Source of the DNA: Escherichia coli
GTDB lineage: Bacteria > Pseudomonadota > Gammaproteobacteria > Enterobacterales > Enterobacteriaceae
Length of the DNA stretch: 64,000 bases
NCBI RefSeq assembly: GCF_003018235.1
Contig: NZ_CP027439.1
Direction: 5' to 3' (one strand)
Every line of letters starts with the position of its first letter. Position 1 is the first letter of the stretch. Position numbers and translations under genes: made by a program. The notes beneath the pieces were generated by a model that was given only the letters and a program-made list of their open reading frames with translations, made no database searches and was not told where the DNA came from. This document shows positions 1,270 to 41,840 of the stretch, in pieces.

Positions 1270-1315
1270 GGTATATCCCCCCGGGAAATCCCCGGGGGAT
1301 GACGGAGATAATGAC

Positions 1316-1879
1316 ATGCACAGTCAGTTAAAAGAACGTATCCGGCTGATGCGCGCAAGGCTGGATAACGCCGCGCCGGTTGCTGAAATCCGGGCTGAAT
1401 CTCAGCTTTTTGTGACTCCTGCCCCGGTCTGTGATCGCCTGGTGACGCTGGCGGAGATCAGCAACCGTGATCACATTCTGGAACCCTCTGCCGGCACCGG
1501 GGCCATACTGCGGGCGATTCGGGATACCGCGCCGGGGGCCATGTGTGATGCGGTGGAAATCAACAGCGGGCTGGTCCGGTATCTGCGGGAAAATTTTAAC
1601 GGTGTCAGGGTTCAGTGTGGCGACTTCATGGAATGGCAGCCGGTGCAGTATTACAGCCGGGTTATCATGAATCCGCCGTTCAGCCACGGGCAGGATATCC
1701 GGCATATCCTGCGGGCCTTTTCCCTGTTGCGTCCGGGTGGCGTGCTGGTTGCCGTCTGTCTGAACGGGCCGCGCCAGCAGGAGAAGCTGTTACCGTTTTC
1801 TGACGTCCGCGAGGAGCTGCCACGCGGCACGTTTGCTTATACCGATGTTCCGACGATGATTATTCGTCTGCGTGCCTGA
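1316..1879 (+). CDS. Orphan DNA methyltransferase (N6-adenine type)
   Basis: 187-aa ORF with AdoMet-binding motif EPSAGTGA and catalytic NPPF motif; no adjacent restriction endonuclease gene. Confidence 0.75.
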   Translation: MHSQLKERIRLMRARLDNAAPVAEIRAESQLFVTPAPVCDRLVTLAEISNRDHILEPSAGTGAILRAIRDTAPGAMCDAVEINSGLVRYLRENFNGVRVQCGDFMEWQPVQYYSRVIMNPPFSHGQDIRHILRAFSLLRPGGVLVAVCLNGPRQQEKLLPFSDVREELPRGTFAYTDVPTMIIRLRA

Positions 1880-2060
1880 TGACTCCGGGCAGGCGGGAGG
1901 ACAAATGCCCGTCTGCCCGCGCCGGGAAAAGACCGCGCGCCGGTGGCGCTGAAAGGGGCCGCGCTCACGCGCCGCCCCTTACATTACGCGGACATTCTGC
2001 TGTGGGCTTCTGTCTTTTCAGACCTGTCATTTGTCTGTTACTGATGATGTTGTTGTTCCT

Positions 2061-2108
2061 GCTACTGCTACTGCTACTGCTACTGCTACTGCTACTGCTA
2101 CTGCTACT
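2061..2108. repeat. Hexanucleotide microsatellite (GCTACT)x8
   Basis: Eight perfect tandem copies read directly from the sequence; preceded by TGATGA/TGTTGT triplet repeats. Confidence 0.9.
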
Positions 2109-2109
2109 G

Positions 2110-2700
2110 TTCTTCTTTTTTCTGCTGTTCTGATTACTGCCTGTTTTGTTGTTCTCCTGCTTATGCCTTTTCCGGGCGTCCCCCTGGCGGGGCGGGCTGT
2201 CGTGAACGGAGCCAGCGAAGCTGTCTCCGCCCTGGCGGGCTTCCATCCCTGACGCGAAACCCCGGGCTTGCAGCGACCGTTCCGGTCGCGCCGCCTCTGT
2301 CGCGCCGTGGCCTGCGCTCCCGGCATCCCGGCAAAAGGCCGCCGGGATGTAAGGGGCAACGCCGTTTCGCAAACCGCGCTTCACGTCGTTGCGGCGGGTC
2401 CCTGTCCGTTGTTGTGTCCGGTGCCATTCACCTGTTTAAGCCCCTGTCGCCGGGGGCTGATACAGCCACAACCGTCTCCGCCAGTCCAGGGGTGAAATGT
2501 ACATCCCGCAAAACTTTTTGCCCAAAAGCAGGCAAAAACTTTTGCGGTCTGCCCCCGGACAGTCGTTTCCGGCCGTGGCAGTGATGCCCCTTGCGGCGAA
2601 GGTTCTCAAAAAGGTGATGGTGAATACCGGAGGGAACAAAAGGCAGGTCCCCGCAAAACGTCAAAACCGCGGCTCCCGAAACTCAAAAGATGATGGGGGC
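2110..2700 (+). promoter_or_regulatory. Frpo/ssi-like structured repeat, copy A (candidate single-strand promoter) upstream of ssb
   Basis: About 600 bp of GC-rich, hairpin-dense non-coding DNA ending just before the ssb RBS; paralogous to 7480..8125. Contains hairpin 2506..2547 (ccgcaaaactttttgcc/ggcaaaaacttttgcgg). Confidence 0.5.
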
Positions 2701-2728
2701 TGAAAACATCAACAGAAGGAGGCACATC

Positions 2729-3558
<830 letters not shown>

Positions 3559-3621
3559 GAGAGGTGCCGGACGGGAACGCGTCCGGCAGACATACAACCA
3601 TCCCGGTCAAAGGAGAAATAT

Positions 3622-5580
3622 ATGTCAGTTACAGAGTCTAAGACAAAAACGGAGCGTAAATCCAGCCGTAAACCTGCAAAAACGCAGGAAACAGTCCTGT
3701 CTGCCCTGCTGGCGCAGACGGAGGAAGTGAGCGTGCCGCTGGCCTCACTGATTAAATCACCGCTGAATGTGCGCACGGTGCCGTATTCTGCGGAGTCCGT
3801 CAGCGAACTGGCGGACTCCATTAAAGGCGTCGGCCTGTTACAGAATCTGGTTGTTCATGCCCTGCCAGGTGACCGTTACGGTGTCGCCGCAGGTGGTCGC
3901 CGACTGGCTGCACTCAACATGCTGGCAGAGCGTGGCATCATTCCGGCTGACTGGCCTGTCCGTGTGAAGGTCATTCCGCAGGAGCTGGCGACGGCGGCAT
4001 CAATGACTGAAAACGGTCATCGTCGGGATATGCACCCTGCTGAACAGATTGCCGGATTCCGCGCAATGGCGCAGGAAGGCAAAACACCTGCACAAATCGG
4101 TGATTTGCTGGGCTATTCACCCCGCCATGTCCAGCGAATGCTGAAACTGGCAGATCTTGCGCCTGTCATCCTCGATGCGCTGGCAGAAGACCGCATCACC
4201 ACCGAACACTGTCAGGCGCTGGCACTGGAGAACGACACCGCGCGTCAGGTGCAGGTGTTTGAAGCCGCCTGCCAGTCAGGATGGGGTGGAAAACCGGAAG
4301 TGCAGACCATTCGTCGTCTGGTGACCGAAAGTGAAGTGGCGGTGGCGGGGAACAGTAAATTCCGCTTCGTGGGGGCTGATGCCTTCTCGCCAGATGAACT
4401 GCGCACCGATTTGTTCAGCGACGACGAGGGTGGCTATGTGGACTGTGTTGCGCTCGATGTCGCCCTGCTGGAAAAACTCCAGGCTGTCGCAGAGTTCCTT
4501 CGGGAAGCCGAAGGCTGGGAATGGTGCGCCGGACGTATGGAGCCTGTTGGTGAGTGCCGTGAGGATGCCGGAACATACCGCTGTCTGCCGGAGCCGGAAG
4601 CGGTGCTGACGGAGGCGGAAGAAGAACGCCTGAACGAACTGATGGCACGTTACGACGCGCCGGAAAACCAGAGTGAGGAATCCGACCTGCTGGAAGCCGA
4701 AATGAAGCTGATGCGCTGCATGGCGAAGGTCAGGGCGTGGACGCCGGAGATGCGTGCCGGAAGTGGCGTGGTGGTGTCCTGGCGTTATGGCAACGTGTGT
4801 GTCCAGCGTGGTGTGCAGTTGCGCAGTGAGGATGATGTGGCTGATAACGATTACCGCACGGAACAGGTGCAGGAGAAAGCCTCAGTGGAGGAAATCAGTC
4901 TGCCGCTGCTGACGAAAATGTCCTCAGAGCGCACGCTGGCAGTCCAGGCGGCACTGATGCAGCAATCAGACAAATCCCTGGCACTTCTGGCATGGACACT
5001 CTGTCTGAATGTATTTGGCAGTGGAGCGTACAGCAATCCCGCCAGAATCCGCCTGGAATGTGAGCATTATTCGCTGACCAGCGATGCGCCGTCAGGGAAG
5101 GAAGGTGCCGCATTCATGGCGATGATGGCAGAAAAAGCCCGTCTTGCCGCCCTGCTGCCGGATGGATGGGCACGGGATATGACGACGTTCCTGTCACTCA
5201 GTCAGGAGGTGCTGTTATCACTGCTCAGTTTCTGCACCGCGTGCAGTATCCACGGTGTCCAGACCCGTGAGTATGGTCACACGTCACGCAGTCCGCTGGA
5301 TTCGCTGGAAAGCGCCATCGGCTTTCACATGCGCGACTGGTGGCAGCCGACAAAAGCAAACTTCTTCGGACACCTGAAAAAGCCGCAGATTATCGCAGCC
5401 CTGAATGAGGCAGGACTGTCCGGTGCTGCACGGGACGCGGAGAAGATGAAGAAAGGCGATGCGGCTGAACATGCAGAGTTCCACATGAAAGACAACCGCT
5501 GGGTGCCTGGCTGGATGTGTGCACCACGCCCACAGACGGATGCCACTGAACGCACCGATAACCTGGCTGATGCCGCCTGA
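3622..5580 (+). CDS. ParB-like nuclease-domain protein (leading region)
   Basis: 652-aa ORF whose N-terminal region has a ParB/Srx-like fold signature (LLQNLVVHALPGDRYGVAAGGRRLAALNM); RBS AAGGAG upstream. Confidence 0.7.
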   Translation: MSVTESKTKTERKSSRKPAKTQETVLSALLAQTEEVSVPLASLIKSPLNVRTVPYSAESVSELADSIKGVGLLQNLVVHALPGDRYGVAAGGRRLAALNMLAERGIIPADWPVRVKVIPQELATAASMTENGHRRDMHPAEQIAGFRAMAQEGKTPAQIGDLLGYSPRHVQRMLKLADLAPVILDALAEDRITTEHCQALALENDTARQVQVFEAACQSGWGGKPEVQTIRRLVTESEVAVAGNSKFRFVGADAFSPDELRTDLFSDDEGGYVDCVALDVALLEKLQAVAEFLREAEGWEWCAGRMEPVGECREDAGTYRCLPEPEAVLTEAEEERLNELMARYDAPENQSEESDLLEAEMKLMRCMAKVRAWTPEMRAGSGVVVSWRYGNVCVQRGVQLRSEDDVADNDYRTEQVQEKASVEEISLPLLTKMSSERTLAVQAALMQQSDKSLALLAWTLCLNVFGSGAYSNPARIRLECEHYSLTSDAPSGKEGAAFMAMMAEKARLAALLPDGWARDMTTFLSLSQEVLLSLLSFCTACSIHGVQTREYGHTSRSPLDSLESAIGFHMRDWWQPTKANFFGHLKKPQIIAALNEAGLSGAARDAEKMKKGDAAEHAEFHMKDNRWVPGWMCAPRPQTDATERTDNLADAA

Positions 5581-28417: not shown

Positions 28418-28709
28418 GCAGGTGGTGTTACTCATTGCCGGAATATCCGGCATCGCGACGGGAATAATCGTCAGCCTGAATATCCCCTTTATCCATCAGG
28501 GGCTTTTTTATCCCGCCAGCCCTGTAGAAATTGTCGTTTCGCTGTGCCTTACCTTTTCTGTTTCTGTTGTGTTTTTTGTGGGGGCAATTGTGGGATGGAT
28601 TTCGGTGTCTGAAATATATTACAGCCGCAGGACTGGACGGAAATATCGGGATATTCCTGCTGAAATGTCGTATGCGCCGGGAGAACACATTAAGGGAGGG
28701 CAAGAATGA
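28407..28709 (+). CDS. trbJ: TrbJ
   Basis: GTG start at 28407 with RBS GGAGGG; membrane protein VRNKQVVLLIAGISG. Confidence 0.6.
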   Translation: MRNKQVVLLIAGISGIATGIIVSLNIPFIHQGLFYPASPVEIVVSLCLTFSVSVVFFVGAIVGWISVSEIYYSRRTGRKYRDIPAEMSYAPGEHIKGGQE

Positions 28710-30082
28710 TGCCACGCATTAAACCTCTTCTGGTTCTTTGTGCTGCTTTACTGACGGTCACACCCGCAGCGTCAGCGGATGTGAACAGCGACATGAATCA
28801 GTTCTTTAACAAGCTGGGCTTCGCCTCCAATACCACACAGCCGGGCGTCTGGCAGGGGCAGGCCGCCGGTTATGCTTACGGTGGCTCCCTGTATGCCCGT
28901 ACTCAGGTCAAAAATGTTCAGCTGATTTCCATGACGCTGCCGGATATCAATGCCGGATGTGGCGGCATCGACGCCTATCTCGGCTCGTTCAGTTTTATTA
29001 ATGGCGAGCAGCTGCAGCGTTTTGTTAAGCAGATTATGAGCAATGCTGCCGGTTACTTTTTTGACCTTGCCCTGCAGACAACGGTGCCGGAAATCAAAAC
29101 CGCAAAAGACTTCCTGCAGAAAATGGCAAGCGACATTAACAGTATGAACCTCAGTTCCTGCCAGGCGGCACAGGGGATTATCGGCGGGCTCTTCCCCCGG
29201 ACGCAGGTGTCCCAGCAGAAAGTCTGTCAGGACATTGCCGGTGAGAGCAATATTTTTGCTGACTGGGCGGCTTCCCGGCAGGGATGTACCGTTGGCGGTA
29301 AATCTGACAGCGTCAGGGATAAAGCCAGCGACAAGGATAAGGAGCGGGTGACCAAAAACATTAACATCATGTGGAATGCGCTTTCCAAAAACAGAATGTT
29401 TGACGGCAACAAAGAGCTGAAAGAGTTTGTGATGACGCTGACCGGCTCACTGGTGTTTGGTCCCAACGGCGAAATCACACCGCTGTCAGCCAGAACCACT
29501 GACCGCTCAATTATCCGGGCCATGATGGAAGGCGGCACAGCAAAAATTTATCACTGCAACGATTCTGATAAATGCCTGAAAGTGGTGGCAGACACACCGG
29601 TGACCATCAGCCGGGATAATGCACTGAAGTCTCAGATTACTAAACTTCTGGCCAGCATTCAGAACAAGGCGGTCAGTGACACGCCTCTGGATGACAAGGA
29701 AAAAGGCTTTATTTCCAGTACCACCATCCCCGTCTTCAAATACCTGGTTGACCCGCAGATGCTCGGTGTTTCCAACAGTATGATTTACCAGCTGACGGAC
29801 TATATCGGTTACGACATCCTGCTGCAGTACATTCAGGAGCTGATACAGCAGGCCCGGGCGATGGTGGCCACAGGAAATTATGACGAAGCAGTTATCGAAC
29901 ATATTAACGACAACATGAATGATGCCACCCGGCAGATTGCGGCGTTTCAGTCACAGGTGCAGGTACAGCAGGATGCGCTGCTGGTTGTCGATCGTCAGAT
30001 GAGCTACATGCGTCAGCAGCTTTCCGCCCGCATGCTCAGTCGTTACCAGAACAACTATCACTTCGGAGGGAGCACGCTGTGA
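28706..30082 (+). CDS. traH: TraH
   Basis: 458 aa with signal peptide. Confidence 0.92.
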   Translation: MMPRIKPLLVLCAALLTVTPAASADVNSDMNQFFNKLGFASNTTQPGVWQGQAAGYAYGGSLYARTQVKNVQLISMTLPDINAGCGGIDAYLGSFSFINGEQLQRFVKQIMSNAAGYFFDLALQTTVPEIKTAKDFLQKMASDINSMNLSSCQAAQGIIGGLFPRTQVSQQKVCQDIAGESNIFADWAASRQGCTVGGKSDSVRDKASDKDKERVTKNINIMWNALSKNRMFDGNKELKEFVMTLTGSLVFGPNGEITPLSARTTDRSIIRAMMEGGTAKIYHCNDSDKCLKVVADTPVTISRDNALKSQITKLLASIQNKAVSDTPLDDKEKGFISSTTIPVFKYLVDPQMLGVSNSMIYQLTDYIGYDILLQYIQELIQQARAMVATGNYDEAVIEHINDNMNDATRQIAAFQSQVQVQQDALLVVDRQMSYMRQQLSARMLSRYQNNYHFGGSTL

Positions 30083-32904
30083 ATGAAGTTTATGTGATTG
30101 CCGGTGGTGAGTGGTTGCGGAATAACCTGAACGCCATTGCCGCTTTTATGGGAACCAGGACGTGGGATTCCATTGAAAAAATTGCGCTCACATTGTCTGT
30201 TCTCGCGGTGGCCGTGATGTGGGTACAGCGGCACAACGTGATGGATTTGCTGGGCTGGGTGGCCGTGTTTGTGCTTATCAGCCTGCTGGTTAATGTCCGC
30301 ACATCGGTGCAGATTATTGATAACAGTGACCTGGTCAAAGTTCACCGGGTGGATAATGTGCCGGTCGGACTGGCGATGCCACTTTCACTGACGACCCGTA
30401 TCGGGCATGCAATGGTGGCCAGTTACGAGATGATCTTCACGCAACCGGACAGTGTCACCTACAGCAAAACGGGGATGCTGTTTGGCGCAGAACTGGTATC
30501 AAAAAGCACCGACTTTTTGTCCCGGAATCCGGAAATCGCCAATCTTTTCCAGGATTATGTGCAGAACTGCGTGATGGGGGATATTTACCTGAACCACAAA
30601 TATACGCTGGAGGAGCTGATGGCCTCCGCTGATCCCTACACGCTGATTTTTTCCCGCCCCAGCCCGCTGCGGGGCGTTTATGACAGCAATAATAATTTCG
30701 TAACCTGTAAGGACGCTTCGGTTTCGCTGAAAGACAAGCTGAATCTGGACACACAGAGTGGCGGAAAAACCTGGCATTATTATGCCCAGCAGCTATTTGG
30801 CGGACGCCCTGATCCTAACCTGCTGTTCAGTACGCTGATTGGCGACAGTTACAGTTACTTCTATGGCTCAAGTAAATCAGCCAGCCAGATCATCCGCCAG
30901 AATGTCACCATCAATGCGCTGAAGGAGGGGATCACCAGTTATGCCGCACGTAATGGTGATTCGGCCAGCCTGGTGAATCTGGCCACCACATCATCGATGG
31001 AGAAGCAACGTCTGGCACATGTCTCCATCGGTCATGTGGCGATGCGGACACTGCCCATGACGCAGACCATCCTGACGGGGATCGCCATCGGTATTTTCCC
31101 GCTCCTGGTACTGGCGGCTGTCTTCAACAAACTGACGCTGTCCGTCCTGAAAGGCTATGTGTTTGCCCTGATGTGGTTGCAGTCATGGCCAATGTTGTAC
31201 GCCATTCTGAACAGCGCCATGACATTTTATGCAAAGCAGAATGGTGCACCGGTGGTGCTCTCGGAAATTTCACAGATACAGCTGAAATACTCCGATCTGG
31301 CTTCCACTGCCGGGTATCTTTCCATGATGATCCCGCCATTATCCTGGATGATGGTCAGGGGGCTCGGGGCAGGATTTTCCAGTGTGTACAGCCATTTCGC
31401 TTCCTCTGCTATCAGCCCGACCGCCAGTGCAGCAGGCAGTGTGGTTGACGGTAATTACTCCTACGGCAACATGCAGACGGAGAACGTTAACGGCTTCAGC
31501 TGGAGCACCAACAGCACCACGTCGTTTGGTCAGATGATGTACCAGACCGGCAGTGGCGCAACCGCCACACAGACCCGTGACGGTAATATGGTGATGGATG
31601 CAAGCGGAGCGATGTCCCGGTTACCGGTCGGCATCAATGCAACGCGTCAGATTGCGGCGGCACAACAGGAAATGGCCCGGGAAGCATCGAACAGAGCAGA
31701 AAGTGCCCTGCATGGGTTCAGCAGCAGTATTGCCAGTGCCTGGAACACGCTCAGTCAGTTTGGTTCTAACCGGGGGAGCAGTGATTCTGTCACCGGTGGT
31801 GCTGACAGCACGATGAGTGCTCAGGACTCCATGATGGCCAGCCGTATGCGCAGTGCAGTGGAAAGCTATGCGAAGGCGCATAATATCAGTAATGAGCAGG
31901 CGACTCAGGAACTGGCATCAACAAGTACCAGGCTATCTGGTGGAATGTATGCTGATGCTCATGCTGAATGGGGGGTTAAACCTAAAATTCTTGGTGTTGG
32001 TGGTGGGGTAGGCATCAGAGGTGGATTTAAGGGGAGCCTGGATGCAACGGATGATGACTCACATTCAGCAAGTAGTGGCAGCAGGGCTACCCATGATGCT
32101 CGCCATGATATCGATGCTAAAGCCAGTAAGGACTTTAAAGAGGCCAGCGATTACTTTACCAGTCGCAAGGTCAGTGAATCCGGCAGCCATACGGACAATA
32201 ATGCCGATTCCCGTGTGGACCAGCTGTCTGCAGCCCTGAACTCAGCAAAACAGAGTTACGACCAGTACACGACGAATATGACCCGCAGCCATGAATATGC
32301 TGAAATGGCATCCCGTACTGAAAGCATGAGTGGGCAGATGAGTGAAGACCTGTCGCAACAGTTTGCACAGTATGTGATGAAACACGCGCCGCAGGATGCC
32401 GAAGCTATTCTGACAAACACCAGTTCACCGGAGATTGCAGAACGCCGTCGGGCGATGGCATGGTCTTTTGTTCAGGAACAGGTGCAGCCTGGTGTTGATA
32501 ATGCCTGGCGTGAATCCCGTGGGGATATTGGTAAAGGAATGGAGAGCGTACCTTCGGGTGGTGGCAGCCAGGATATTATTGCTGACCATCAGGGGCATCA
32601 GGCCATTATTGATCAAAGAACGCAGGACAGTAATATCCGTAATGATGTAAAACATCAGGTTGATAATATGGTCACAGAATATAAAGGGAATATCGGAGAT
32701 ACTCAGAATAGTATTCATGGCGAAGAAAATATTGTAGACAGACAATATTCAGAGTTAAAAAATAATCACAAACAGGAAGAAATTCAACAAAACAACAGAT
32801 ATAATGAAGAAAATAAACGACAGAAATTAATGCCAACACCGTCTGAAGATGCGTTAAAACAGATGGTGGATGATAAGAAAGAACGATTGAAGGGGCCATT
32901 ATGA
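30079..32904 (+). CDS. traG: TraG (mating-pair stabilisation / entry exclusion)
   Basis: 941 aa, polytopic N-terminal domain. Confidence 0.92.
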   Translation: MNEVYVIAGGEWLRNNLNAIAAFMGTRTWDSIEKIALTLSVLAVAVMWVQRHNVMDLLGWVAVFVLISLLVNVRTSVQIIDNSDLVKVHRVDNVPVGLAMPLSLTTRIGHAMVASYEMIFTQPDSVTYSKTGMLFGAELVSKSTDFLSRNPEIANLFQDYVQNCVMGDIYLNHKYTLEELMASADPYTLIFSRPSPLRGVYDSNNNFVTCKDASVSLKDKLNLDTQSGGKTWHYYAQQLFGGRPDPNLLFSTLIGDSYSYFYGSSKSASQIIRQNVTINALKEGITSYAARNGDSASLVNLATTSSMEKQRLAHVSIGHVAMRTLPMTQTILTGIAIGIFPLLVLAAVFNKLTLSVLKGYVFALMWLQSWPMLYAILNSAMTFYAKQNGAPVVLSEISQIQLKYSDLASTAGYLSMMIPPLSWMMVRGLGAGFSSVYSHFASSAISPTASAAGSVVDGNYSYGNMQTENVNGFSWSTNSTTSFGQMMYQTGSGATATQTRDGNMVMDASGAMSRLPVGINATRQIAAAQQEMAREASNRAESALHGFSSSIASAWNTLSQFGSNRGSSDSVTGGADSTMSAQDSMMASRMRSAVESYAKAHNISNEQATQELASTSTRLSGGMYADAHAEWGVKPKILGVGGGVGIRGGFKGSLDATDDDSHSASSGSRATHDARHDIDAKASKDFKEASDYFTSRKVSESGSHTDNNADSRVDQLSAALNSAKQSYDQYTTNMTRSHEYAEMASRTESMSGQMSEDLSQQFAQYVMKHAPQDAEAILTNTSSPEIAERRRAMAWSFVQEQVQPGVDNAWRESRGDIGKGMESVPSGGGSQDIIADHQGHQAIIDQRTQDSNIRNDVKHQVDNMVTEYKGNIGDTQNSIHGEENIVDRQYSELKNNHKQEEIQQNNRYNEENKRQKLMPTPSEDALKQMVDDKKERLKGPL

Positions 32905-33410
32905 TCACTCACTATGATATAAAAATGGAGATGCAAAAACTAAAGGAGGTACTCTCTGTAGAGGGTGTTAATATCCCATCATTATTACAAGTCATAAAAC
33001 CGGGAACTTATGTGTTTTTATGGGCTTTATTATGGCCAACTTTTCTGCGTTTAGTATCGGTTAAAAGTGATGTCAGGGATGTTGGCTTTGATATATGTGC
33101 TAGTGGAATGATGGGGTTCCTGCTTTTTGTGGCTATTACAAATGGAATGATGTTATACCTTGCGATTCCTGATAGTTTCAGAAAGGATTCAAAAATAATA
33201 AATTTTATGTATTCTAAGAGTAAGACATATATTTTGTTGTTTTTGATTGTTTTTTCTATGGTTTCATTTATGCATTCTATCTTATATGTTTTTGCACTAA
33301 TGATTACATTCATATTATTTTTCTTGGTGTATACCATAGATATAAATCGTTATAATCTCTCAGCTATAGCCTCAGTAATAGGACTGTTCAAAAAAGAGTC
33401 TGTTAGTTAA
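32901..33410 (+). CDS. traS: Entry exclusion protein TraS
   Basis: AT-rich, hydrophobic 169-aa ORF between traG and traT. Confidence 0.75.
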
Positions 33411-33423
33411 AAGGATATTTTGG

Positions 33424-34155
33424 ATGAAAACAAAAAAATTGATGATGGTTGCACTGGTCAGTTCCACTCTGGCCCTTTCAGGGTGTGGTGCGATGAGCAC
33501 AGCAATCAAGAAGCGTAACCTTGAGGTGAAGACTCAGATGAGTGAGACCATCTGGCTTGAACCCGCCAGCGAACGCACGGTATTTCTGCAGATCAAAAAC
33601 ACGTCTGATAAAGACATGAGTGGGCTGCAGGGCAAAATTGCTGATGCTGTGAAAGCAAAAGGATATCAGGTGGTGACTTCTCCGGATAAAGCCTACTACT
33701 GGATTCAGGCGAATGTGCTGAAGGCCGATAAGATGGATCTGCGGGAGTCTCAGGGATGGCTGAACCGTGGTTATGAAGGCGCAGCAGTTGGTGCAGCGTT
33801 AGGTGCCGGTATCACCGGATATAATTCCAGTTCTGCCGGTGCCACACTCGGTGTGGGCCTTGCTGCCGGTCTGGTGGGTATGGCTGCAGATGCGATGGTG
33901 GAAGATGTGAACTATACCATGATCACGGATGTGCAGATTGCAGAGCGTACTAAGGCAACGGTGACAACGGATAATGTTGCCGCCCTGCGTCAGGGCACAT
34001 CAGGTGCGAAAATTCAGACCAGTACTGAAACAGGTAACCAGCATAAATACCAGACCCGTGTGGTCTCAAATGCGAACAAGGTTAACCTGAAATTTGAAGA
34101 GGCGAAGCCTGTTCTCGAAGACCAGCTGGCCAAATCAATCGCAAATATTCTCTGA
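33424..34155 (+). CDS. traT: Surface exclusion lipoprotein TraT
   Basis: 243 aa, lipobox LSGCGA. Confidence 0.93.
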
Positions 34156-34407
34156 TTATCTTCCGGAGGCTGGTCTGACCGGCCTCCTGACTGACGCCTC
34201 GCTTTGCTCGTTGTCCAACCCCGGAAAGAAATAAAATAAATTTTATTTCTCCCCGGCGTTTCCGAAATAAATATGAAAACACTGAGCGGTTGTGCAAATT
34301 CTTTGTGCGACCGTGAAGTGTTGCCGGCGAAGCCGGAATTTAACGGTTATTAATCTTTTCATCATTAATAATCAGTCCGACTGACTTTTTTTCTTCGGAA
34401 TATCATC

Positions 34408-36570
34408 ATGAGTTTTAACGCAAAGGATATGACCCAGGGCGGTCAGATTGCGTCCATGCGTATCCGCATGTTCAGCCAGATCGCCAATATCATGCTTTAC
34501 TGCCTGTTTATTTTTTTCTGGATACTCGTTGGTCTGGTTTTATGGGTAAAAATAAGCTGGCAGACGTTTGTGAACGGCTGTATTTACTGGTGGTGTACCA
34601 CGCTGGAAGGCATGCGGGATTTAATCAAGTCCCAGCCGGTCTATGAGATCCAGTATTACGGCAAAACCTTCCGGATGAATGCTGCTCAGGTACTGCATGA
34701 TAAATATATGATCTGGTGCGGAGAGCAGCTATGGTCCGCATTCGTTCTGGCCACAGTTGTGGCACTGGTTATTTGCCTGATTACCTTCTTTGTTGTCTCC
34801 TGGATTCTGGGGCGTCAGGGTAAACAACAGAGCGAAAATGAAGTCACAGGTGGTCGTCAGCTGACAGACAATCCGAAAGACGTTGCCCGGATGCTGAAAA
34901 AAGACGGCAAGGACTCCGATATCCGGATTGGCGACCTGCCGATTATCCGGGATTCTGAAATCCAGAACTTCTGTCTGCACGGCACGGTCGGGGCCGGTAA
35001 GTCGGAAGTTATCCGTCGTCTGGCCAACTACGCCCGTCAGCGCGGTGATATGGTGGTGATTTATGACCGTTCAGGGGAATTTGTTAAAAGTTACTATGAT
35101 CCCTCCATCGATAAGATCCTGAATCCGCTGGATGCCCGCTGTGCCGCCTGGGATTTATGGAAGGAGTGTCTGACACAGCCGGATTTTGATAATACGGCAA
35201 ATACCCTGATCCCGATGGGCACAAAAGAGGACCCGTTCTGGCAGGGTTCAGGACGTACCATTTTTGCGGAAGCGGCGTACCTGATGCGTAATGACCCCAA
35301 CCGCAGCTACAGCAAACTGGTGGACACACTGCTTTCCATCAAAATCGAAAAACTGCGTACCTTCCTGCGTAATTCACCGGCGGCCAACCTGGTGGAAGAG
35401 AAAATTGAGAAAACGGCGATTTCCATCCGTGCTGTGCTGACCAACTACGTGAAAGCCATCCGTTACCTGCAGGGGATTGAGCATAACGGTGAGTCTTTTA
35501 CCATCCGTGACTGGATGCGTGGTGTCCGGGAAGATCAGAAAAACGGCTGGCTGTTTATCTCGTCGAATGCCGACACCCATGCCTCCCTGAAGCCGGTGAT
35601 CTCCATGTGGCTGTCCATTGCCATTCGTGGTCTGCTGGCAATGGGAGAAAACCGTAACCGTCGTGTGTGGTTTTTCTGTGATGAGCTACCCACGTTACAC
35701 AAACTGCCGGACCTGGTGGAGATCCTGCCGGAAGCCCGTAAGTTCGGTGGCTGTTATGTGTTTGGTATCCAGTCCTATGCCCAGCTGGAAGATATCTACG
35801 GTGAGAAAGCGGCTGCCACGCTGTTTGACGTCATGAACACCCGTGCCTTTTTCCGTTCTCCCAGCCATAAGATTGCAGAGTTTGCTGCCGGTGAGATTGG
35901 TGAGAAAGAGCACCTGAAAGCCAGCGAGCAGTACTCCTACGGTGCTGATCCGGTACGTGACGGGGTATCGACCGGTAAGGATATGGAGCGCCAGACGCTG
36001 GTCAGTTATTCCGACATTCAGTCTCTGCCGGATTTGACCTGTTATGTCACCCTGCCCGGACCGTATCCGGCAGTAAAACTCTCACTGAAATATCAGGCAC
36101 GTCCGAAGGTTGCCCCTGAGTTTATTCCGCGTGACATCAACCCGGAAATGGAGAACCGCCTGAGTGCCGTACTTGCCGCAAGGGAAGCAGAAGGTCGTCA
36201 GATGGCCAGCCTCTTCGAACCGGATGTGCCGGAGGTTGTTTCCGGAGAAGACGTGACTCAGGCTGAACAGCCGCAACAGCCGCAACAGCCGGTGTCTCCT
36301 GCCATCAACGATAAGAAGTCAGATTCAGGTGTGAATGTTCCGGCAGGGGGGATCGAGCAGGAGCTGAAAATGAAACCGGAAGAAGAGATGGAACAGCAAC
36401 TGCCACCCGGGATCAGTGAATCCGGTGAAGTGGTGGATATGGCCGCTTATGAGGCATGGCAACAGGAAAATCATCCGGACATCCAGCAGCAGATGCAGCG
36501 TCGTGAAGAGGTGAACATTAATGTGCACCGGGAGCGCGGGGAGGATGTTGAGCCGGGAGATGATTTCTGA
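34408..36570 (+). CDS. traD: Type IV coupling protein TraD
   Basis: 720 aa with Walker A GTVGAGKS and C-terminal QPQQPQQP repeats. Confidence 0.95.
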
Positions 36571-39500
36571 TGATGAGTATCGCGCAGGTCAGATCGGCCG
36601 GAAGTGCCGGTAACTATTATACCGACAAGGATAATTACTATGTGCTGGGCAGCATGGGAGAACGCTGGGCCGGCAGGGGGGCTGAACAGCTGGGACTGCA
36701 GGGCAGTGTCGATAAGGATGTTTTTACCCGTCTTCTGGAGGGAAGGCTGCCGGACGGAGCGGATCTAAGCCGCATGCAGGATGGCAGTAACAGGCATCGT
36801 CCCGGCTACGACCTGACCTTCTCCGCCCCCAAAAGTGTCTCCATGATGGCCATGTTAGGTGGCGATAAGCGCCTGATTGATGCACATAACCAGGCCGTGG
36901 ACTTTGCTGTTCGTCAGGTGGAGGCGCTGGCCTCCACACGGGTGATGACGGACGGACAGTCAGAAACGGTGCTGACCGGTAATCTGGTGATGGCACTGTT
37001 TAACCACGACACCAGTCGCGATCAGGAACCACAGTTACACACGCATGCGGTGGTGGCTAATGTCACGCAGCATAACGGCGAATGGAAGACACTGAGCAGT
37101 GACAAAGTGGGGAAAACGGGGTTCATTGAGAATGTGTACGCTAATCAGATTGCCTTTGGCAGGCTCTACCGGGAAAAACTGAAAGAGCAGGTTGAGGCGC
37201 TGGGCTATGAAACCGAAGTGGTGGGTAAGCACGGTATGTGGGAGATGCCGGGCGTACCGGTGGAGGCCTTTTCCGGACGCTCACAGGCAATCCGGGAGGC
37301 CGTCGGGGAAGATGCCTCGCTGAAATCCCGGGATGTGGCGGCACTGGATACGCGAAAATCCAAACAGCACGTCGATCCTGAAGTCAGAATGGCTGAATGG
37401 ATGCAGACGCTGAAGGAAACCGGGTTCGACATCCGGGCATATCGTGACGCGGCGGATCAGCGTGCGGAGACCCGCACGCAGGCGCCCGGGCCAGCTTCAC
37501 AGGACGGGCCGGATGTGCAGCAGGCGGTGACACAGGCGATTGCCGGATTAAGTGAACGAAAAGTGCAGTTCACGTATACGGATGTGCTGGCCAGGACAGT
37601 CGGCATACTGCCGCCGGAAAATGGTGTGATTGAACGGGCACGCGCCGGTATCGATGAGGCCATCAGCCGTGAGCAGCTTATCCCCCTCGATCGTGAGAAG
37701 GGGCTGTTCACGTCCGGGATTCATGTGCTCGATGAGCTGTCAGTCCGGGCGCTCAGTCGTGACATCATGAAACAGAACCGGGTGACCGTACATCCGGAGA
37801 AAAGTGTCCCCCGGACGGCCGGTTACAGCGATGCCGTCAGTGTTCTGGCACAGGATCGCCCGTCGCTGGCCATTGTGTCCGGGCAGGGCGGTGCTGCCGG
37901 GCAGCGTGAGCGGGTGGCTGAACTGGTCATGATGGCCCGGGAGCAGGGGCGGGAGGTGCAGATTATCGCTGCTGACCGTCGTTCGCAGATGAACCTGAAG
38001 CAGGATGAACGGCTGTCCGGTGAGCTGATAACCGGACGTCGTCAGCTGCAGGAGGGCATGACCTTCACACCGGGCAGTACCGTTATCGTTGACCAGGGCG
38101 AAAAACTCTCCCTGAAAGAGACGTTAACCCTGCTGGACGGTGCCGCACGTCATAACGTACAGGTCCTGATAACCGACAGCGGGCAGCGAACCGGTACAGG
38201 CAGTGCGCTGATGGCCATGAAGGATGCCGGGGTGAACACATATCGCTGGCAGGGGGGAGAACAGCGACCGGCCACCATCATCAGTGAACCGGACCGTAAT
38301 GTCCGCTATGCCCGGCTGGCAGGAGATTTTGCGGCCAGCGTGAAAGCCGGAGAAGAGAGCGTGGCACAGGTCAGCGGGGTACGGGAACAGGCCATACTGA
38401 CACAGGCCATTCGCAGTGAGCTGAAAACACAGGGCGTGCTCGGACACCCGGAGGTAACCATGACCGCCCTCTCACCGGTCTGGCTGGACAGCCGGAGCCG
38501 TTATCTGCGGGATATGTACCGTCCGGGGATGGTGATGGATCAGTGGAACCCGGAGACACGCAGTCATGACCGCTATGTTATCGACCGGGTGACGGCGCAG
38601 AGTCACAGCCTGACCCTGCGGGATGCGCAGGGTGAAACGCAGGTGGTGCGTATTTCCTCCCTGGACAGCAGCTGGTCGCTGTTCCGGCCGGAAAAAATGC
38701 CGGTGGCAGACGGCGAGCGTCTGAGGGTGACAGGGAAAATTCCCGGACTCCGCGTCTCCGGCGGTGACCGCCTGCAGGTGGCATCCGTCAGTGAAGATGC
38801 GATGACGGTTGTTGTGCCGGGGCGGGCTGAACCGGCCACCCTGCCTGTGGCTGATTCACCGTTCACGGCACTGAAGCTGGAGAATGGCTGGGTGGAAACG
38901 CCCGGGTATTCCGTCAGCGACAGTGCGACGGTTTTTGCCTCCGTCACACAGATGGCAATGGACAACGCCACCCTGAACGGTCTGGCCCGCAGCGGTCGTG
39001 ATGTCCGGCTGTATTCCTCTCTGGATGAAACCCGTACTGCGGAAAAACTTGCCCGCCATCCCTCCTTTACGGTGGTTTCTGAGCAGATAAAGACGCGGGC
39101 CGGTGAGACACCGCTGGAAACTGCTATCAGTCTGCAGAAAGCCGGGCTTCACACGCCGGCACAGCAGGCCATTCATCTGGCCCTTCCTGTGCTGGAAAGT
39201 AAAAACCTGGCCTTCAGCATGGTGGACCTGCTGACAGAGGCGAAGTCGTTTGCTGCAGAAGGAACCAGTTTTATCGACCTGGGAGGGGAAATCAATGCGC
39301 AGATAAAACGCGGTGATTTACTGTATGTGGATGTGGCAAAAGGCTATGGCACAGGCCTGCTGGTTTCCCGTGCGTCGTATGAGGCAGAAAAGAGCATTCT
39401 TCGCCATATTCTCGAAGGTAAGGAGGCGGTCACGCCGCTGATGGAGAGAGTACCTGGCGAACTCATGGAGAAACTGACATCAGGACAGCGCGCCGCCACC

Positions 39501-41840
39501 CGCATGATACTGGAAACGTCCGACCGTTTCACGGTGGTGCAGGGCTATGCCGGTGTGGGTAAGACCACACAGTTCCGGGCGGTGATGTCAGCCGTGAACA
39601 TGCTGCCGGAGAGTGAGCGTCCCCGTGTCGTTGGGCTGGGGCCCACACACCGTGCGGTCGGGGAGATGCGCAGCGCCGGCGTGGATGCACAGACACTGGC
39701 GTCCTTTCTGCATGACACGCAGCTGCAGCAGCGCAGCGGAGAAACGCCGGATTTCAGCAACACGCTGTTCCTGCTCGATGAGAGCTCAATGGTGGGCAAT
39801 ACCGACATGGCACGGGCATACGCCCTGATTGCGGCCGGTGGTGGTCGTGCAGTGGCCAGCGGTGACACGGACCAGCTGCAGGCCATCGCGCCCGGTCAGC
39901 CTTTCCGTCTCCAGCAGACGCGCAGTGCTGCCAATGTGGCTATCATGAAAGAGATTGTTCGTCAGACGCCGGAACTGCGGGAGGCGGTATACAGCCTGAT
40001 TAACCGGGATGTGGAAAGGGCATTGTCCGGGCTTGAGCGTGTGAAACCGTCTCAGGTGCCACGTCAGGAGGGCGCATGGGCACCGGAGCACTCTGTGACG
40101 GAGTTCAGTCACAGCCAGGAAGCGAAACTGGCAGAAGCGCAGCAGAAGGCGATGCTGAAAGGCGAGGATTTCCCGGATGTCCCCATGACACTGTATGAAG
40201 CCATTGTTCGCGACTATACCGGCAGGACACCGGAAGCACGGGAGCAGACGCTGATTGTCACGCACCTGAATGAAGACAGGCGCGTGCTGAACAGTATGAT
40301 TCATGATGCACGGGAAAAGGCCGGTGAGCTGGGAAAAGAGCAGGTCATGGTGCCTGTCCTGAACACAGCGAATATACGTGACGGGGAGCTGCGTCGTCTC
40401 TCCACCTGGAAGAATAACCCGGATGCCCTTGCCCTGGTGGATAATGTGTATCACCGGATTGCCGGTATCAGTAAGGATGACGGGCTGATAACCCTGGAGG
40501 ATGCGGAAGGTAACACGCGGCTGATTTCGCCCCGGGAGGCGGTGGCTGAAGGCGTCACACTGTACACCCAGGACATCATCCGGGTGGGGACCGGTGACCG
40601 GATGCGCTTCACGAAGAGTGACCGGGAGCGCGGTTATGTGGCCAACAGTGTCTGGACGGTGACAGCAGTTTCCGGTGACAGTGTCACGCTGTCGGACGGA
40701 CAGCAGACCCGGGTGATTCGCCCCGGCCAGGAGCGGGCAGAGCAACATATTGACCTGGCCTATGCCATCACCGCCCACGGTGCGCAGGGGGCAAGTGAAA
40801 CCTTTGCCATCGCGCTTGAAGGCACGGAAGGTAACCGGAAACTGATGGCCGGCTTTGAGTCAGCCTACGTGGCCCTGTCGCGTATGAAGCAGCATGTGCA
40901 GGTGTACACCGATAACCGTCAGGGCTGGACGGATGCCATTAACAATGCCGTACAGAAAGGAACTGCCCACGATGTGTTTGAGCCGAAACCGGACCGGGAG
41001 GTCATGAATGCAGAGCGGCTGTTCAGTACGGCGCGGGAGCTGCGGGACGTGGCGGCAGGCCGTGCCATTCTTCGTCAGGCGGGGCTTGCCGGGGGAGACA
41101 GTCCTGCACGGTTTATTGCTCCGGGACGTAAATATCCACAGCCGTATGTGGCACTGCCGGCGTTTGACCGTAACGGCAAGTCTGCCGGTATCTGGCTGAA
41201 CCCGCTGACCACGGATGACGGAAACGGGCTGCGGGGATTCAGTGGTGAAGGCCGTGTGAAAGGCAGCGGGGATGCGCAGTTCGTGGCCCTGCAGGGCAGC
41301 CGTAACGGCGAGAGCCTGCTGGCTGATAATATGCAGGATGGTGTCCGGATTGCCCGTGATAACCCCGACAGCGGTGTGGTGGTGAGAATCGCCGGTGAAG
41401 GTCGTCCGTGGAATCCCGGTGCCATCACCGGTGGCCGCGTGTGGGGGGATATCCCGGACAACAACGTCCAGCCGGGAGCCGGAAATGGCGAGCCGGTCAC
41501 GGCAGAGGTACTGGCACAGCGGCAGGCTGAAGAGGCCATCCGCCGTGAAACGGAACGCCGTGCGGATGAGATTGTCAGAAAAATGGCGGAGAACAAACCT
41601 GACCTGCCGGACGGCAGAACAGAGCAGGCTGCCAGGGAGATTGCCGGGCAGGAGCGTGACCGGTCTGCCATATCTGAACGGGAAGCCGCGCTGCCGGAGA
41701 GTGTGCTGCGTGAATCACAACGGGAGCGGGAAGCGGTCCGGGAGGTTGCCCGGGAAAATCTGCTGCAGGAACGACTTCAGCAGATGGAGCGGGATATGGT
41801 TCGTGACCTGCAGAAAGAGAAAACCCTGGGCGGAGACTGA
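36570..41840 (+). CDS. traI: Relaxase/helicase TraI
   Basis: 1756 aa; relaxase N-terminus with catalytic tyrosines (NYYTDKDNYYV) and histidine motif HDTSRDQEPQLHTHAVV; helicase motif GYAGVGKT. Confidence 0.96.
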   Translation: MMSIAQVRSAGSAGNYYTDKDNYYVLGSMGERWAGRGAEQLGLQGSVDKDVFTRLLEGRLPDGADLSRMQDGSNRHRPGYDLTFSAPKSVSMMAMLGGDKRLIDAHNQAVDFAVRQVEALASTRVMTDGQSETVLTGNLVMALFNHDTSRDQEPQLHTHAVVANVTQHNGEWKTLSSDKVGKTGFIENVYANQIAFGRLYREKLKEQVEALGYETEVVGKHGMWEMPGVPVEAFSGRSQAIREAVGEDASLKSRDVAALDTRKSKQHVDPEVRMAEWMQTLKETGFDIRAYRDAADQRAETRTQAPGPASQDGPDVQQAVTQAIAGLSERKVQFTYTDVLARTVGILPPENGVIERARAGIDEAISREQLIPLDREKGLFTSGIHVLDELSVRALSRDIMKQNRVTVHPEKSVPRTAGYSDAVSVLAQDRPSLAIVSGQGGAAGQRERVAELVMMAREQGREVQIIAADRRSQMNLKQDERLSGELITGRRQLQEGMTFTPGSTVIVDQGEKLSLKETLTLLDGAARHNVQVLITDSGQRTGTGSALMAMKDAGVNTYRWQGGEQRPATIISEPDRNVRYARLAGDFAASVKAGEESVAQVSGVREQAILTQAIRSELKTQGVLGHPEVTMTALSPVWLDSRSRYLRDMYRPGMVMDQWNPETRSHDRYVIDRVTAQSHSLTLRDAQGETQVVRISSLDSSWSLFRPEKMPVADGERLRVTGKIPGLRVSGGDRLQVASVSEDAMTVVVPGRAEPATLPVADSPFTALKLENGWVETPGYSVSDSATVFASVTQMAMDNATLNGLARSGRDVRLYSSLDETRTAEKLARHPSFTVVSEQIKTRAGETPLETAISLQKAGLHTPAQQAIHLALPVLESKNLAFSMVDLLTEAKSFAAEGTSFIDLGGEINAQIKRGDLLYVDVAKGYGTGLLVSRASYEAEKSILRHILEGKEAVTPLMERVPGELMEKLTSGQRAATRMILETSDRFTVVQGYAGVGKTTQFRAVMSAVNMLPESERPRVVGLGPTHRAVGEMRSAGVDAQTLASFLHDTQLQQRSGETPDFSNTLFLLDESSMVGNTDMARAYALIAAGGGRAVASGDTDQLQAIAPGQPFRLQQTRSAANVAIMKEIVRQTPELREAVYSLINRDVERALSGLERVKPSQVPRQEGAWAPEHSVTEFSHSQEAKLAEAQQKAMLKGEDFPDVPMTLYEAIVRDYTGRTPEAREQTLIVTHLNEDRRVLNSMIHDAREKAGELGKEQVMVPVLNTANIRDGELRRLSTWKNNPDALALVDNVYHRIAGISKDDGLITLEDAEGNTRLISPREAVAEGVTLYTQDIIRVGTGDRMRFTKSDRERGYVANSVWTVTAVSGDSVTLSDGQQTRVIRPGQERAEQHIDLAYAITAHGAQGASETFAIALEGTEGNRKLMAGFESAYVALSRMKQHVQVYTDNRQGWTDAINNAVQKGTAHDVFEPKPDREVMNAERLFSTARELRDVAAGRAILRQAGLAGGDSPARFIAPGRKYPQPYVALPAFDRNGKSAGIWLNPLTTDDGNGLRGFSGEGRVKGSGDAQFVALQGSRNGESLLADNMQDGVRIARDNPDSGVVVRIAGEGRPWNPGAITGGRVWGDIPDNNVQPGAGNGEPVTAEVLAQRQAEEAIRRETERRADEIVRKMAENKPDLPDGRTEQAAREIAGQERDRSAISEREAALPESVLRESQREREAVREVARENLLQERLQQMERDMVRDLQKEKTLGGD

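Follow-up and report, generated by a model that had tools for sequence, protein, structure and literature searches.

The 64,000-nucleotide stretch of Escherichia coli DNA analyzed here (contig NZ_CP027439.1; hereafter the window) very probably carries the entry- and surface-exclusion genes of a conjugative plasmid of the F-like kind (MPF-F, MOBF12), whose TraS class, TraG segment and exclusion specificity are unlike those of F and R100. Judging from its sequence, this is most likely a working module that would exclude solely its own widespread plasmid type, and not F or R100. Exclusion groups determine which F-like plasmids enter a cell already holding one, and they shape the co-residence and recombination of resistance and virulence plasmids. 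The classical groups are Sfx I (F), Sfx II (ColB2), Sfx III (R1) and Sfx IV (R100); to our knowledge, specificity has been dissected only for the TraS/TraG pairs of F and R100. The window-type allele represents a third class, which ranks among the commonest in E. coli. Exclusion typing of F-like plasmids, by TraS allele and TraG residues 606–680, is under-characterized (our literature search turned up no study that types TraS alleles systematically), and natural chimeras could guide the mapping of its determinants.

Layout and gene identities

On the plus strand, traG (30079–32904, 941 aa), traS (32901–33410, 169 aa) and traT (33424–34155, 243 aa) follow one another closely, the start codon of traS overlapping the stop codon of traG (ATGA). 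With traD flanking them downstream (34408–36570), the order traH–traG–traS–traT–traD–traI reproduces the synteny of F, R100 and pSLT. The earlier note had placed the traS/traT pair at 32901–34155, which agrees to the base with the list of open reading frames, and had named the two genes, in the right order, as an exclusion pair, an identification that family models and F-like synteny bear out. TraS, the entry-exclusion inner-membrane protein, matches the NCBIfam equivalog model NF010304 over residues 1–168 of 169 with 253.1 bits (cutoff 173; E 1e-75), as compared to 221 bits for F TraS itself. Its score, its position between traG and traT and its hydrophobicity all place it in the NF010304/PRK13741 family, and the Pfam search found no TraS model. 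TraT, the surface-exclusion/complement-resistance outer-membrane lipoprotein, belongs to its family by both NF010291 (545 bits) and Pfam PF05818 (279 bits). TraG, the donor-side partner of TraS, which also functions in pilus assembly and mating-pair stabilization, has the characters of an F-type TraG, matching NF010295 with 1300 bits over residues 3–907 as well as PF07916; it comprises an N-terminal membrane domain and a C-terminal periplasmic domain bearing a variable segment, and as a whole is 89% identical to its F and 90% to its R100 counterpart. The family matches of all three proteins are far above chance. Because the genes, their order and the exact protein are already in public databases, the traS/traT finding in itself amounts to routine annotation.

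TraT is conserved, as the earlier note had held: 242 of its 243 residues are those of F TraT, the sole change being N136S. A lipobox (LALSGC, with Cys21) can be read from its sequence, and the solved TraT structures 9FS5, 9E2V and 9FSM are matched at E values of 1e-123 to 1e-141. Codon 136 (33829–33831, plus strand) encodes Ser here, as opposed to the Asn of F, R100 and R1, giving SSAGA instead of NSAGA at the formerly proposed specificity pentapeptide. The SSAGA form is shared with the TraT proteins of ColB-K98 and pED208, and the N136S change left exclusion of F unaffected (PMC12658005). We note separately that the pentapeptide of the window matches ColB-K98 TraT and not R1 TraT, the sole pointer to those groups.

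TraS: a common allele of a divergent protein

Aligned from residue 1, TraS and its F counterpart share 29% identity over the full length, the conserved features including the N-terminus (MIT...IPSL.Q..KPG) and the motif D.(N/G)RY, and no similarity was detected to the TraS proteins of R100 and pSLT. Measured against these reference alleles, namely F and R100, for which exclusion specificity has been assayed, and pSLT, which has been tested experimentally, the window TraS is identical to none. The description of traS as divergent in the earlier note thus stands insofar as F (29%) and R100 (unrelated) are concerned, but it is a common E. coli allele that was already annotated as TraS. Likewise, its length does differ from that of F TraS (169 vs. 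173 aa, PGAP), but the difference is small and not distinguishing. Older literature gives the length of F TraS as 149 aa.

The exact protein (P0002) is found on 19 public contigs, and its predominant variant, which carries Val at position 42, on at least 1000. Window-type traS is present on ~680 PLSDB plasmids and in 886 of 5426 complete E. coli genomes, and the window-type TraG(606–680)/TraS pair on ~11% of TraS-bearing PLSDB plasmids. The allele is already known and ranks with the most frequent traS alleles of E. coli. Several candidates were set aside in the course of these comparisons: a TraS group at 62.9% identity, considered as a separate allele class, is a frameshifted pseudogene; pUTI89, considered as a named carrier of the window allele, bears an R100-family TraS; and NZ_CP107059, taken as a possible R1, is not R1.

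A C for T at position 33025 (plus strand), the sole difference from locus L003 over 32401–34300, changes Val42 of the predominant protein WP_000628099.1 to Ala. Might this change have rendered the TraS copy defective? PLSDB holds no exact match to the window traS (the best being 99.8% identical in nucleotides and 99.4% in amino acids), and the counts above mark the Ala42 variant as rare. However, the substitution is conservative and lies inside a transmembrane helix, the reading frame is intact, the variant recurs on those 19 contigs, and natural TraS proteins vary at this position: P0067 also has Ala, P0074 and L009 both have Ile, and F has Met. We therefore assign next to no probability to a defect, and continue with the reading of a working TraS.

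The earlier note had also called TraS hydrophobic, consistent with a GRAVY of 0.83. Its AlphaFold model (pLDDT 82, pTM 0.75) features four hydrophobic helices of 23–31 residues (28–53, 58–88, 98–121 and 127–149) in addition to terminal helices; the protein is predicted to have neither a signal peptide nor a lipobox and to lie in the inner membrane. Reading the sequence, we count 11 Lys and Arg residues on the N-terminus, the 2–3 loop and the C-terminus, as compared to 3 on the opposite side, an asymmetry that favors an N-in, C-in topology and would define the periplasm-facing loops. The most variable stretch of the TraS family, residues 50–62, falls within one such predicted periplasmic loop. 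A Foldseek comparison of the TraS model with the PDB returned no match at E ≤ 0.001, and PDB sequence searches with TraS and with TraG returned none either.

A low-GC block and candidate regulatory signals

At a GC content of 0.316, traS is indeed AT-rich, in agreement with the earlier description; traT has 0.503, and the window as a whole 0.50. The AT-richness extends upstream of the gene, into a low-GC divergent block (32700–33410, plus strand) that comprises the last ~70–85 codons of traG and the entire traS. The block starts at ~32600–32700, inside the 3′ end of traG and ~200–250 bp before its stop codon; its GC content is 0.25–0.375 and its identity to F and R100 32–66%. Megablast matches from other plasmid types stop at 32736–32813, and the synonymous sites of the traG tail are saturated (pS 0.72–0.76).

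A GC content of 0.32 on a plasmid of 0.50, together with sharp breaks in identity at ~32700 and ~33400, might be taken to mean that the block was acquired recently from a foreign donor of low GC content and is not an old allele of the F-like locus. We regard this as very improbable, given that all alleles examined (F, R100, pSLT, L004 and L005) are AT-rich both in traS (0.32–0.39) and in the traG tail, that the C-terminus of TraG encoded in the block is in frame and homologous, as its TraS is to F TraS, that the same locus holds a graded series of alleles 61–99% identical, and that mobile-element features are absent from the flanks. We thus retain the reading of an old allele of the F-like locus. 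Low GC also characterizes the traS alleles of F, R100 and pSLT, among others, and AT-richness is no distinguishing mark of the window traS.

A constitutive promoter for traST, PST, exists (PMC7303359). In the window, a weak sigma-70-like match in the traG tail (32735–32766, plus strand; 9/12 consensus), ~135 nt upstream of traS, is a candidate for this role; as the region holds 5 such matches versus 5.3 in shuffled sequence, with no excess, we claim no promoter and offer the match as a lead only. On the other side of the gene pair, a GC-rich hairpin with a 10-bp stem (34165–34187, plus strand) located 10 nt past the traT stop is a candidate traST terminator; no T-run follows it and a consensus terminator scan missed it. 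The RNA fold of 34150–34270 (−38.3 kcal/mol, z −4.8, none of 200 shuffles being as stable) includes a second, AT-rich hairpin in the traT–traD spacer (34217–34260, plus strand), which the consensus scan missed too and whose function is likewise putative.

The TraG specificity segment and its linkage to traS

TraG residues 606–680 (31894–32118, plus strand) constitute a variable segment that matches the published specificity region. Residues 610–673 are given as the exclusion-specificity determinant by Audette et al. (2007), in the passage of PMC9797247 that cites that work, and PMC7555446 provides further literature basis for the segment. The F and R100 TraG proteins are 93% identical overall, yet there is no cross-exclusion between them (PMC9797247). 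In the window, the segment is only 52–82% identical in nucleotides to F and R100, as compared to 93–100% for its flanks, and has a GC3 of 0.325, versus 0.56 for traG as a whole. Its two halves differ in affinity: residues 610–645 are 86% identical to R100 and 53% to F, and residues 646–680 are 51% identical to R100, 69% to F and 94% to L005. The segment therefore reads as a mosaic, R100-like in its first half and with a sequence of its own in the second. As a separate observation, the first half is R100-like although R100 TraS is unrelated, which counts against simple pairing.

The segment accompanies window-type traS in all PLSDB records of that type. Records at least 95% identical number 688 for the TraG segment plus traS and 679 for traS alone, which indicates that the two are co-inherited. 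Across traG–traT, the sub-variant L009 accumulates 27 differences, none of them within 31822–32168. Synonymous divergence (dS) is 0.4–0.8 in the TraG segment and traS versus 0.09–0.13 in the flanks, as would be left by old alleles residing in a recombining backbone.

Mechanism and exclusion specificity

In the mechanism that we adopt from the literature, plasmid-bearing cells make TraS, a small protein that would cross the inner membrane with four helices, and the matching of a cognate TraG–TraS pair blocks DNA entry. TraT, a decameric outer-membrane lipoprotein, independently reduces mating-pair formation, and also gives serum resistance (PMC9797247; PMC7555446; PMC12445648; PMC12658005; PMC11733297). 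Even in the F system, direct complex formation between TraG and TraS has yet to be detected (PMC7555446). Our view of the specificity of the window TraS derives from the F-versus-R100 experiments; our literature search found no exclusion assay of the window-type TraG(606–680)/TraS pair.

By its TraG and TraS, the plasmid belongs neither to Sfx IV, there being no TraS similarity to R100 and only 51% identity over TraG 646–680, nor to Sfx I, at 29% TraS identity to F. It is nevertheless worth considering whether TraS shares the specificity of F, fully or in overlap, such that the plasmid would fall in the F exclusion group: both TraS proteins pass NF010304 and align end to end with conserved motifs, and the near-identity of the two TraT proteins (242/243) points the same way. 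We find this quite unlikely in view of the low TraS identity and of a TraG segment that is only 53% (610–645) and 69% (646–680) identical to that of F. Three residues are reported to be enough for a specificity switch in SXT/R391, according to the citing statement in PMC7555446, and the 93% identity of the F and R100 TraG proteins goes with an absence of cross-exclusion (PMC9797247).

We thus return to a specificity unlike that of F and R100. More tentatively, and on a proposal that may well fail, the window-type pair could form a specificity group apart from both, maybe that of ColB2 or none of the classical four, with determinants that are perhaps mappable from natural chimeras. If so, the L004 and L005 TraS proteins, which differ almost only at residues 109–158, would point to the TraG-recognition region of TraS.

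How closely do segment and allele track each other? Within the 169-aa TraS family, the divergence of TraS and that of TraG 606–680 are weakly correlated (Spearman 0.23, 55 pairs), and a pairing of one segment with one allele may therefore be incomplete. No sub-region of TraS tracks TraG 606–680 above a rho of 0.38 (55 pairs), and we accordingly claim no co-evolution. An extension of the scheme is that specificity is set not only by TraG 610–673 but also by the TraG tail (~868–941) and/or TraS 109–158, in which case the "cognate traG region" of the earlier note would be incomplete. The tail sits within the divergent block, and its divergence correlates with that of TraS better than does that of 606–680 (Pearson 0.72 vs. 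0.40 with F included, 0.53 vs. 0.20 with F left out); moreover, the L004 and L005 TraS proteins are near-identical over residues 1–108 and differ at 109–158, and their TraG segments are very different, each TraS–TraG combination occurring on >130 plasmids. However, the tail adjoins traS, so that linkage alone accounts for a correlation that was drawn from 12 loci only; F and R100 share 79% identity in the tail despite unrelated TraS proteins; and the published F/R100 comparison (PMC9797247) places plasmid specificity at 610–673. Such an additional contribution is possible but rather unlikely, and TraG 610–673 remains our preferred seat of donor-side specificity.

Comparison with known systems

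Among the closest known systems are the plasmids of E. coli and Salmonella with a TraS of the WP_000628099.1 type, such as NZ_CP122456, CP043740 and 144-kb Salmonella plasmids. Their TraS agrees with that of the window in 168 of 169 residues, V42A being the difference; their TraG segment and TraT are those of the window, and identity over 32401–34300 is 99.9%. With the TraS/TraG system of F (Sfx group I), the window has in common the locus, the gene order, the NF010304 family, a similar TraS length (169 and 173 residues), a predicted four-helix membrane architecture, an AT-rich traS and traG tail, and a traT–traD spacer of 252 bp. It differs in the sequences of TraS and of the TraG segment, and in that traG and traS overlap (ATGA) where F has a 32-nt gap. 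The TraS proteins of R100, pSLT and pUTI89 (Sfx group IV type) are likewise encoded between traG and traT, with the same role assigned to them, and traD and traI abut in R100 as they do in the window; the R100-family TraS is, however, an unrelated protein, with a hydrophilic C-terminal third and no match to any NCBIfam TraS model. Farther afield, in the Eex/TraG systems of SXT/R391 and IncC elements, as cited accounts describe them, a small inner-membrane protein of the recipient is likewise recognized via a short variable stretch of the donor TraG, Eex belonging to a protein family other than TraS.

Gene order and identity

On the + strand of the window lies a complete F-like tra operon, in which the ORFs of traH (28706-30082), traG (30079-32904, 941 aa), traS (32901-33410, 169 aa), traT (33424-34155, 243 aa), traD (34408-36570) and traI (36570-41840) follow one another. 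The traG product passes the TraG equivalog model at 1300 bits, the traS product passes NF010304, the NCBIfam TraS equivalog, at 253 bits against a cutoff of 173 (Pfam holds no TraS model), and the traT product passes NF010291 at 545 bits and also matches Pfam PF05818. The earlier note had placed an entry and surface exclusion pair at 32901-34155, an interval whose ends fall exactly on the start of traS and the stop of traT; the annotation is correct and precise, and both the pair and its allele are already known. Its description of traS as AT-rich and hydrophobic is borne out by a GC content of 0.316, versus 0.503 for traT and 0.50 for the whole window, and by a GRAVY score of 0.83.

The gene junctions vary among relatives. 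The start of traS and the stop of traG overlap (ATGA, 32901-32904) in the whole 169-aa allele family, and the two genes are separated by 32 nt in F (L001:6242-6275) and by 15 nt in R100 (L002:13979-13995); the overlap suggests translational coupling of traS to traG specific to this family. The traT–traD spacer (34156-34407) measures 252 bp, as in F, and lacks the ~738-bp ORF of R100, pUTI89 and the L005 locus, and traD and traI abut at 36570, as in R100, without the vapBC pair of F, pSLT and the L004 locus, making these junctions a mosaic. The traS–traT spacer is 13 bp except in L012, a Salmonella-associated relative with a ~550-bp insert (L012:4011-4559) that bears, on the opposite strand, an ORF of 103 aa. 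In two plasmids one member of the exclusion pair has been lost naturally: traS of p_STEC276 is a frameshifted, unannotated pseudogene (L006:3480-4030), and traG of p1ColV5155 has an internal stop (L007:679-3504).

Two strong hairpins are predicted after traT (34165-34187 and 34217-34260, + strand); the region folds at -38.3 kcal/mol (z -4.8), a stability that none of the shuffles reached. Sigma-70-like matches within the traG tail (32735-32766) and within traS (33291-33318) are leads only, their count not exceeding that in shuffled sequence.

Islands of divergence

When traG-traS-traT is compared in sliding steps with F, R100 and four relatives, three divergent islands stand out from a backbone otherwise 93-100% identical. 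The first (30430-31380) lies in the N-terminal membrane domain of traG, is mostly 74-91% identical to F and R100, and is 96-100% common to the plasmids of loci L003, L004, L006 and L007. The second (~31880-32130; TraG residues ~601-684) corresponds to the published specificity segment, residues 610-673. The third, from ~32650-32700 to 33400, takes in the final 70-85 traG codons and the entire traS; here megablast matches from other plasmid types end at 32736-32813, and in nucleotide alignment the point in traG at which the window type departs lies ~100 bp upstream of that at which F, R100, L004 and L005 part from one another. For traT, every 100-nt step of the comparison gives 93-100% identity to all relatives.

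Low GC is not peculiar to the window allele: traS ranges from 0.32 to 0.39 across F, R100, pSLT, L004 and L005, the traG tail from 0.33 to 0.39 across the alleles compared, and GC3 of the TraG specificity segment from 0.29 to 0.375, versus 0.55-0.59 for whole traG. The AT-richness and the difference in length from F that had been singled out are both real, yet as distinguishing marks they are unremarkable for this locus. By the Nei-Gojobori method, the TraG segment and traS have elevated dN as well as dS (dS 0.4-0.8, dN/dS 0.2-0.3), compared with flanks at dS 0.09-0.13 and dN/dS 0.02-0.04, and synonymous sites in the window traG tail are saturated. This pattern is what would be expected of old alleles within a recombination-homogenised backbone, rather than of a recent foreign import.

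Specificity segment and its linkage to traS

According to PMC9797247 and PMC7555446, Audette et al. (2007) assigned exclusion specificity to TraG 610-673 in experiments on F versus R100. Window TraG 606-680 (31894-32118) differs from both F and R100, and is a mosaic of two sub-modules, of which the first (residues 610-645) shares 86% identity with R100 and the second (646-680) shares 51% with R100, 69% with F and 94% with the L005 type. In the L004 segment the second sub-module is 86% F-like and the first is unique.

Linkage between the TraG segment and traS is essentially complete. At least 95% identity over the 1561 bases spanning both is found in 688 PLSDB records, against 679 for traS alone, and a sub-variant with 27 differences over traG-traT has none in 31822-32168, which supports the earlier proposal of a TraG/TraS pair in so far as its two members are inherited together. 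By analogy with the F-versus-R100 experiments, we infer that the window pair may define a distinct specificity.

The 169-aa TraS family forms a graded allele series, 61-99% identical to the window. Across ten additional family loci plus the window (11 loci; 12 with F TraS), divergence of TraS correlates weakly with that of TraG 606-680 (Spearman 0.23, F excluded) and better with that of the neighbouring traG tail (Pearson 0.53 when F is excluded and 0.72 when it is included), and no TraS sub-region tracking the TraG segment was found among these loci; the sample is small, and physical linkage alone can explain the tail correlation. A suggestive natural chimera is offered by the L004-type and L005-type haplotypes (156 and 139 PLSDB records, the latter including pKF3-70, NC_013542; traG 679-3504 and traS 3501-4010 in each locus). 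Their TraS proteins have only three differences in residues 1-108 and many in 109-158, and the TraG 606-680 segments with which they are paired are very unlike each other. Such haplotypes could show where in TraS the recognition of TraG resides, which would be the TM3-loop-TM4 region provided both TraG/TraS pairs are cognate.

Predicted TraS topology

An AlphaFold model of TraS from the family alignment (mean pLDDT 82, pTM 0.75) predicts helices at residues 4-21, 28-53, 58-88, 98-121, 127-149 and 153-168. Since the two termini and the 2-3 loop together hold 11 Lys and Arg residues and the opposite side holds three, a cytoplasmic location of both termini is favoured. With this topology, exposure to the periplasm, the side on which a donor TraG would arrive, would be limited to residues ~50-62 and ~121-127; the family varies most at residues 50-62 (mean pairwise distance 0.57). 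Fold and sequence searches found no solved structure resembling TraS, and a sequence search found none for TraG.

Frequency of the allele

The window traS allele is neither that of F nor that of R100, but few traS alleles are commoner in E. coli, and public databases already name it. At the DNA level it matches hundreds of PLSDB plasmids with 99.8% identity (543 matches at ≥99%, 136 at 95-99%), and at least 80% of 32401-34300 is present in 886 of the 5426 complete E. coli genomes. Over those 1900 bases the best-matching record differs only at 33025 (C/T), giving V42A relative to WP_000628099.1. The exact window protein occurs, named TraS, in 19 contigs of the public protein collection, the V42 form in at least 1000. 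Because Ala, Ile and Met occupy this transmembrane position in other alleles, V42A is probably neutral. F-family TraS is found in 3561 PLSDB plasmids, 671 of them at least 95% identical to the window, and R100-family TraS in a further 2581, so the window type accounts for about one tenth of all TraS-bearing PLSDB plasmids.

Coverage of 41900-64000 by any one PLSDB plasmid does not exceed 45%. The plasmids that match parts of it best come from E. coli and E. albertii and carry, next to an IncFII repA, a UbiD/UbiX decarboxylase, a LysR regulator, a tannase/feruloyl esterase and idi, metabolic cargo that is unusual for an F-like plasmid.

Comparison with characterised exclusion systems

Four surface-exclusion groups were reportedly defined by Willetts and Maule: F, ColB2, R1-19 and R100-1. 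Membership of the F group is ruled out by a TraS only 29% identical and by the differing TraG 606-680, and membership of the R100 group by a TraS without similarity and, again, the differing segment.

TraT is, as anticipated, well conserved: N136S is the sole change from F TraT, and beyond it only the signal peptide differs from R100 TraT. Solved TraT structures match the window protein (E 1e-141). N136S turns the formerly proposed "specificity pentapeptide" NSAGA into SSAGA, which is present in ColB-K98 and pED208 TraT and leaves exclusion of F unaltered (PMC12658005). The presence of SSAGA in ColB-K98 and not in R1 (PMC12658005) points weakly to the ColB2 group; since SSAGA or near variants also stand beside other TraS alleles among the sampled loci (L013, L014 and L015), it is not diagnostic.

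The locus is very probably a functional TraS/TraT exclusion module, and its specificity is likely to be distinct from those of F and R100. The divergence claimed for TraS was confirmed by alignment: over its full length it is 29% identical to F TraS (173-aa PGAP form), and protein comparison found no similarity to R100 or pSLT TraS. It belongs to the F family, in a different allele class from F itself. R100 and pSLT TraS, 65% identical to each other, matched no NCBIfam model, so the traS locus of F-like plasmids is occupied by either of two unrelated protein families.
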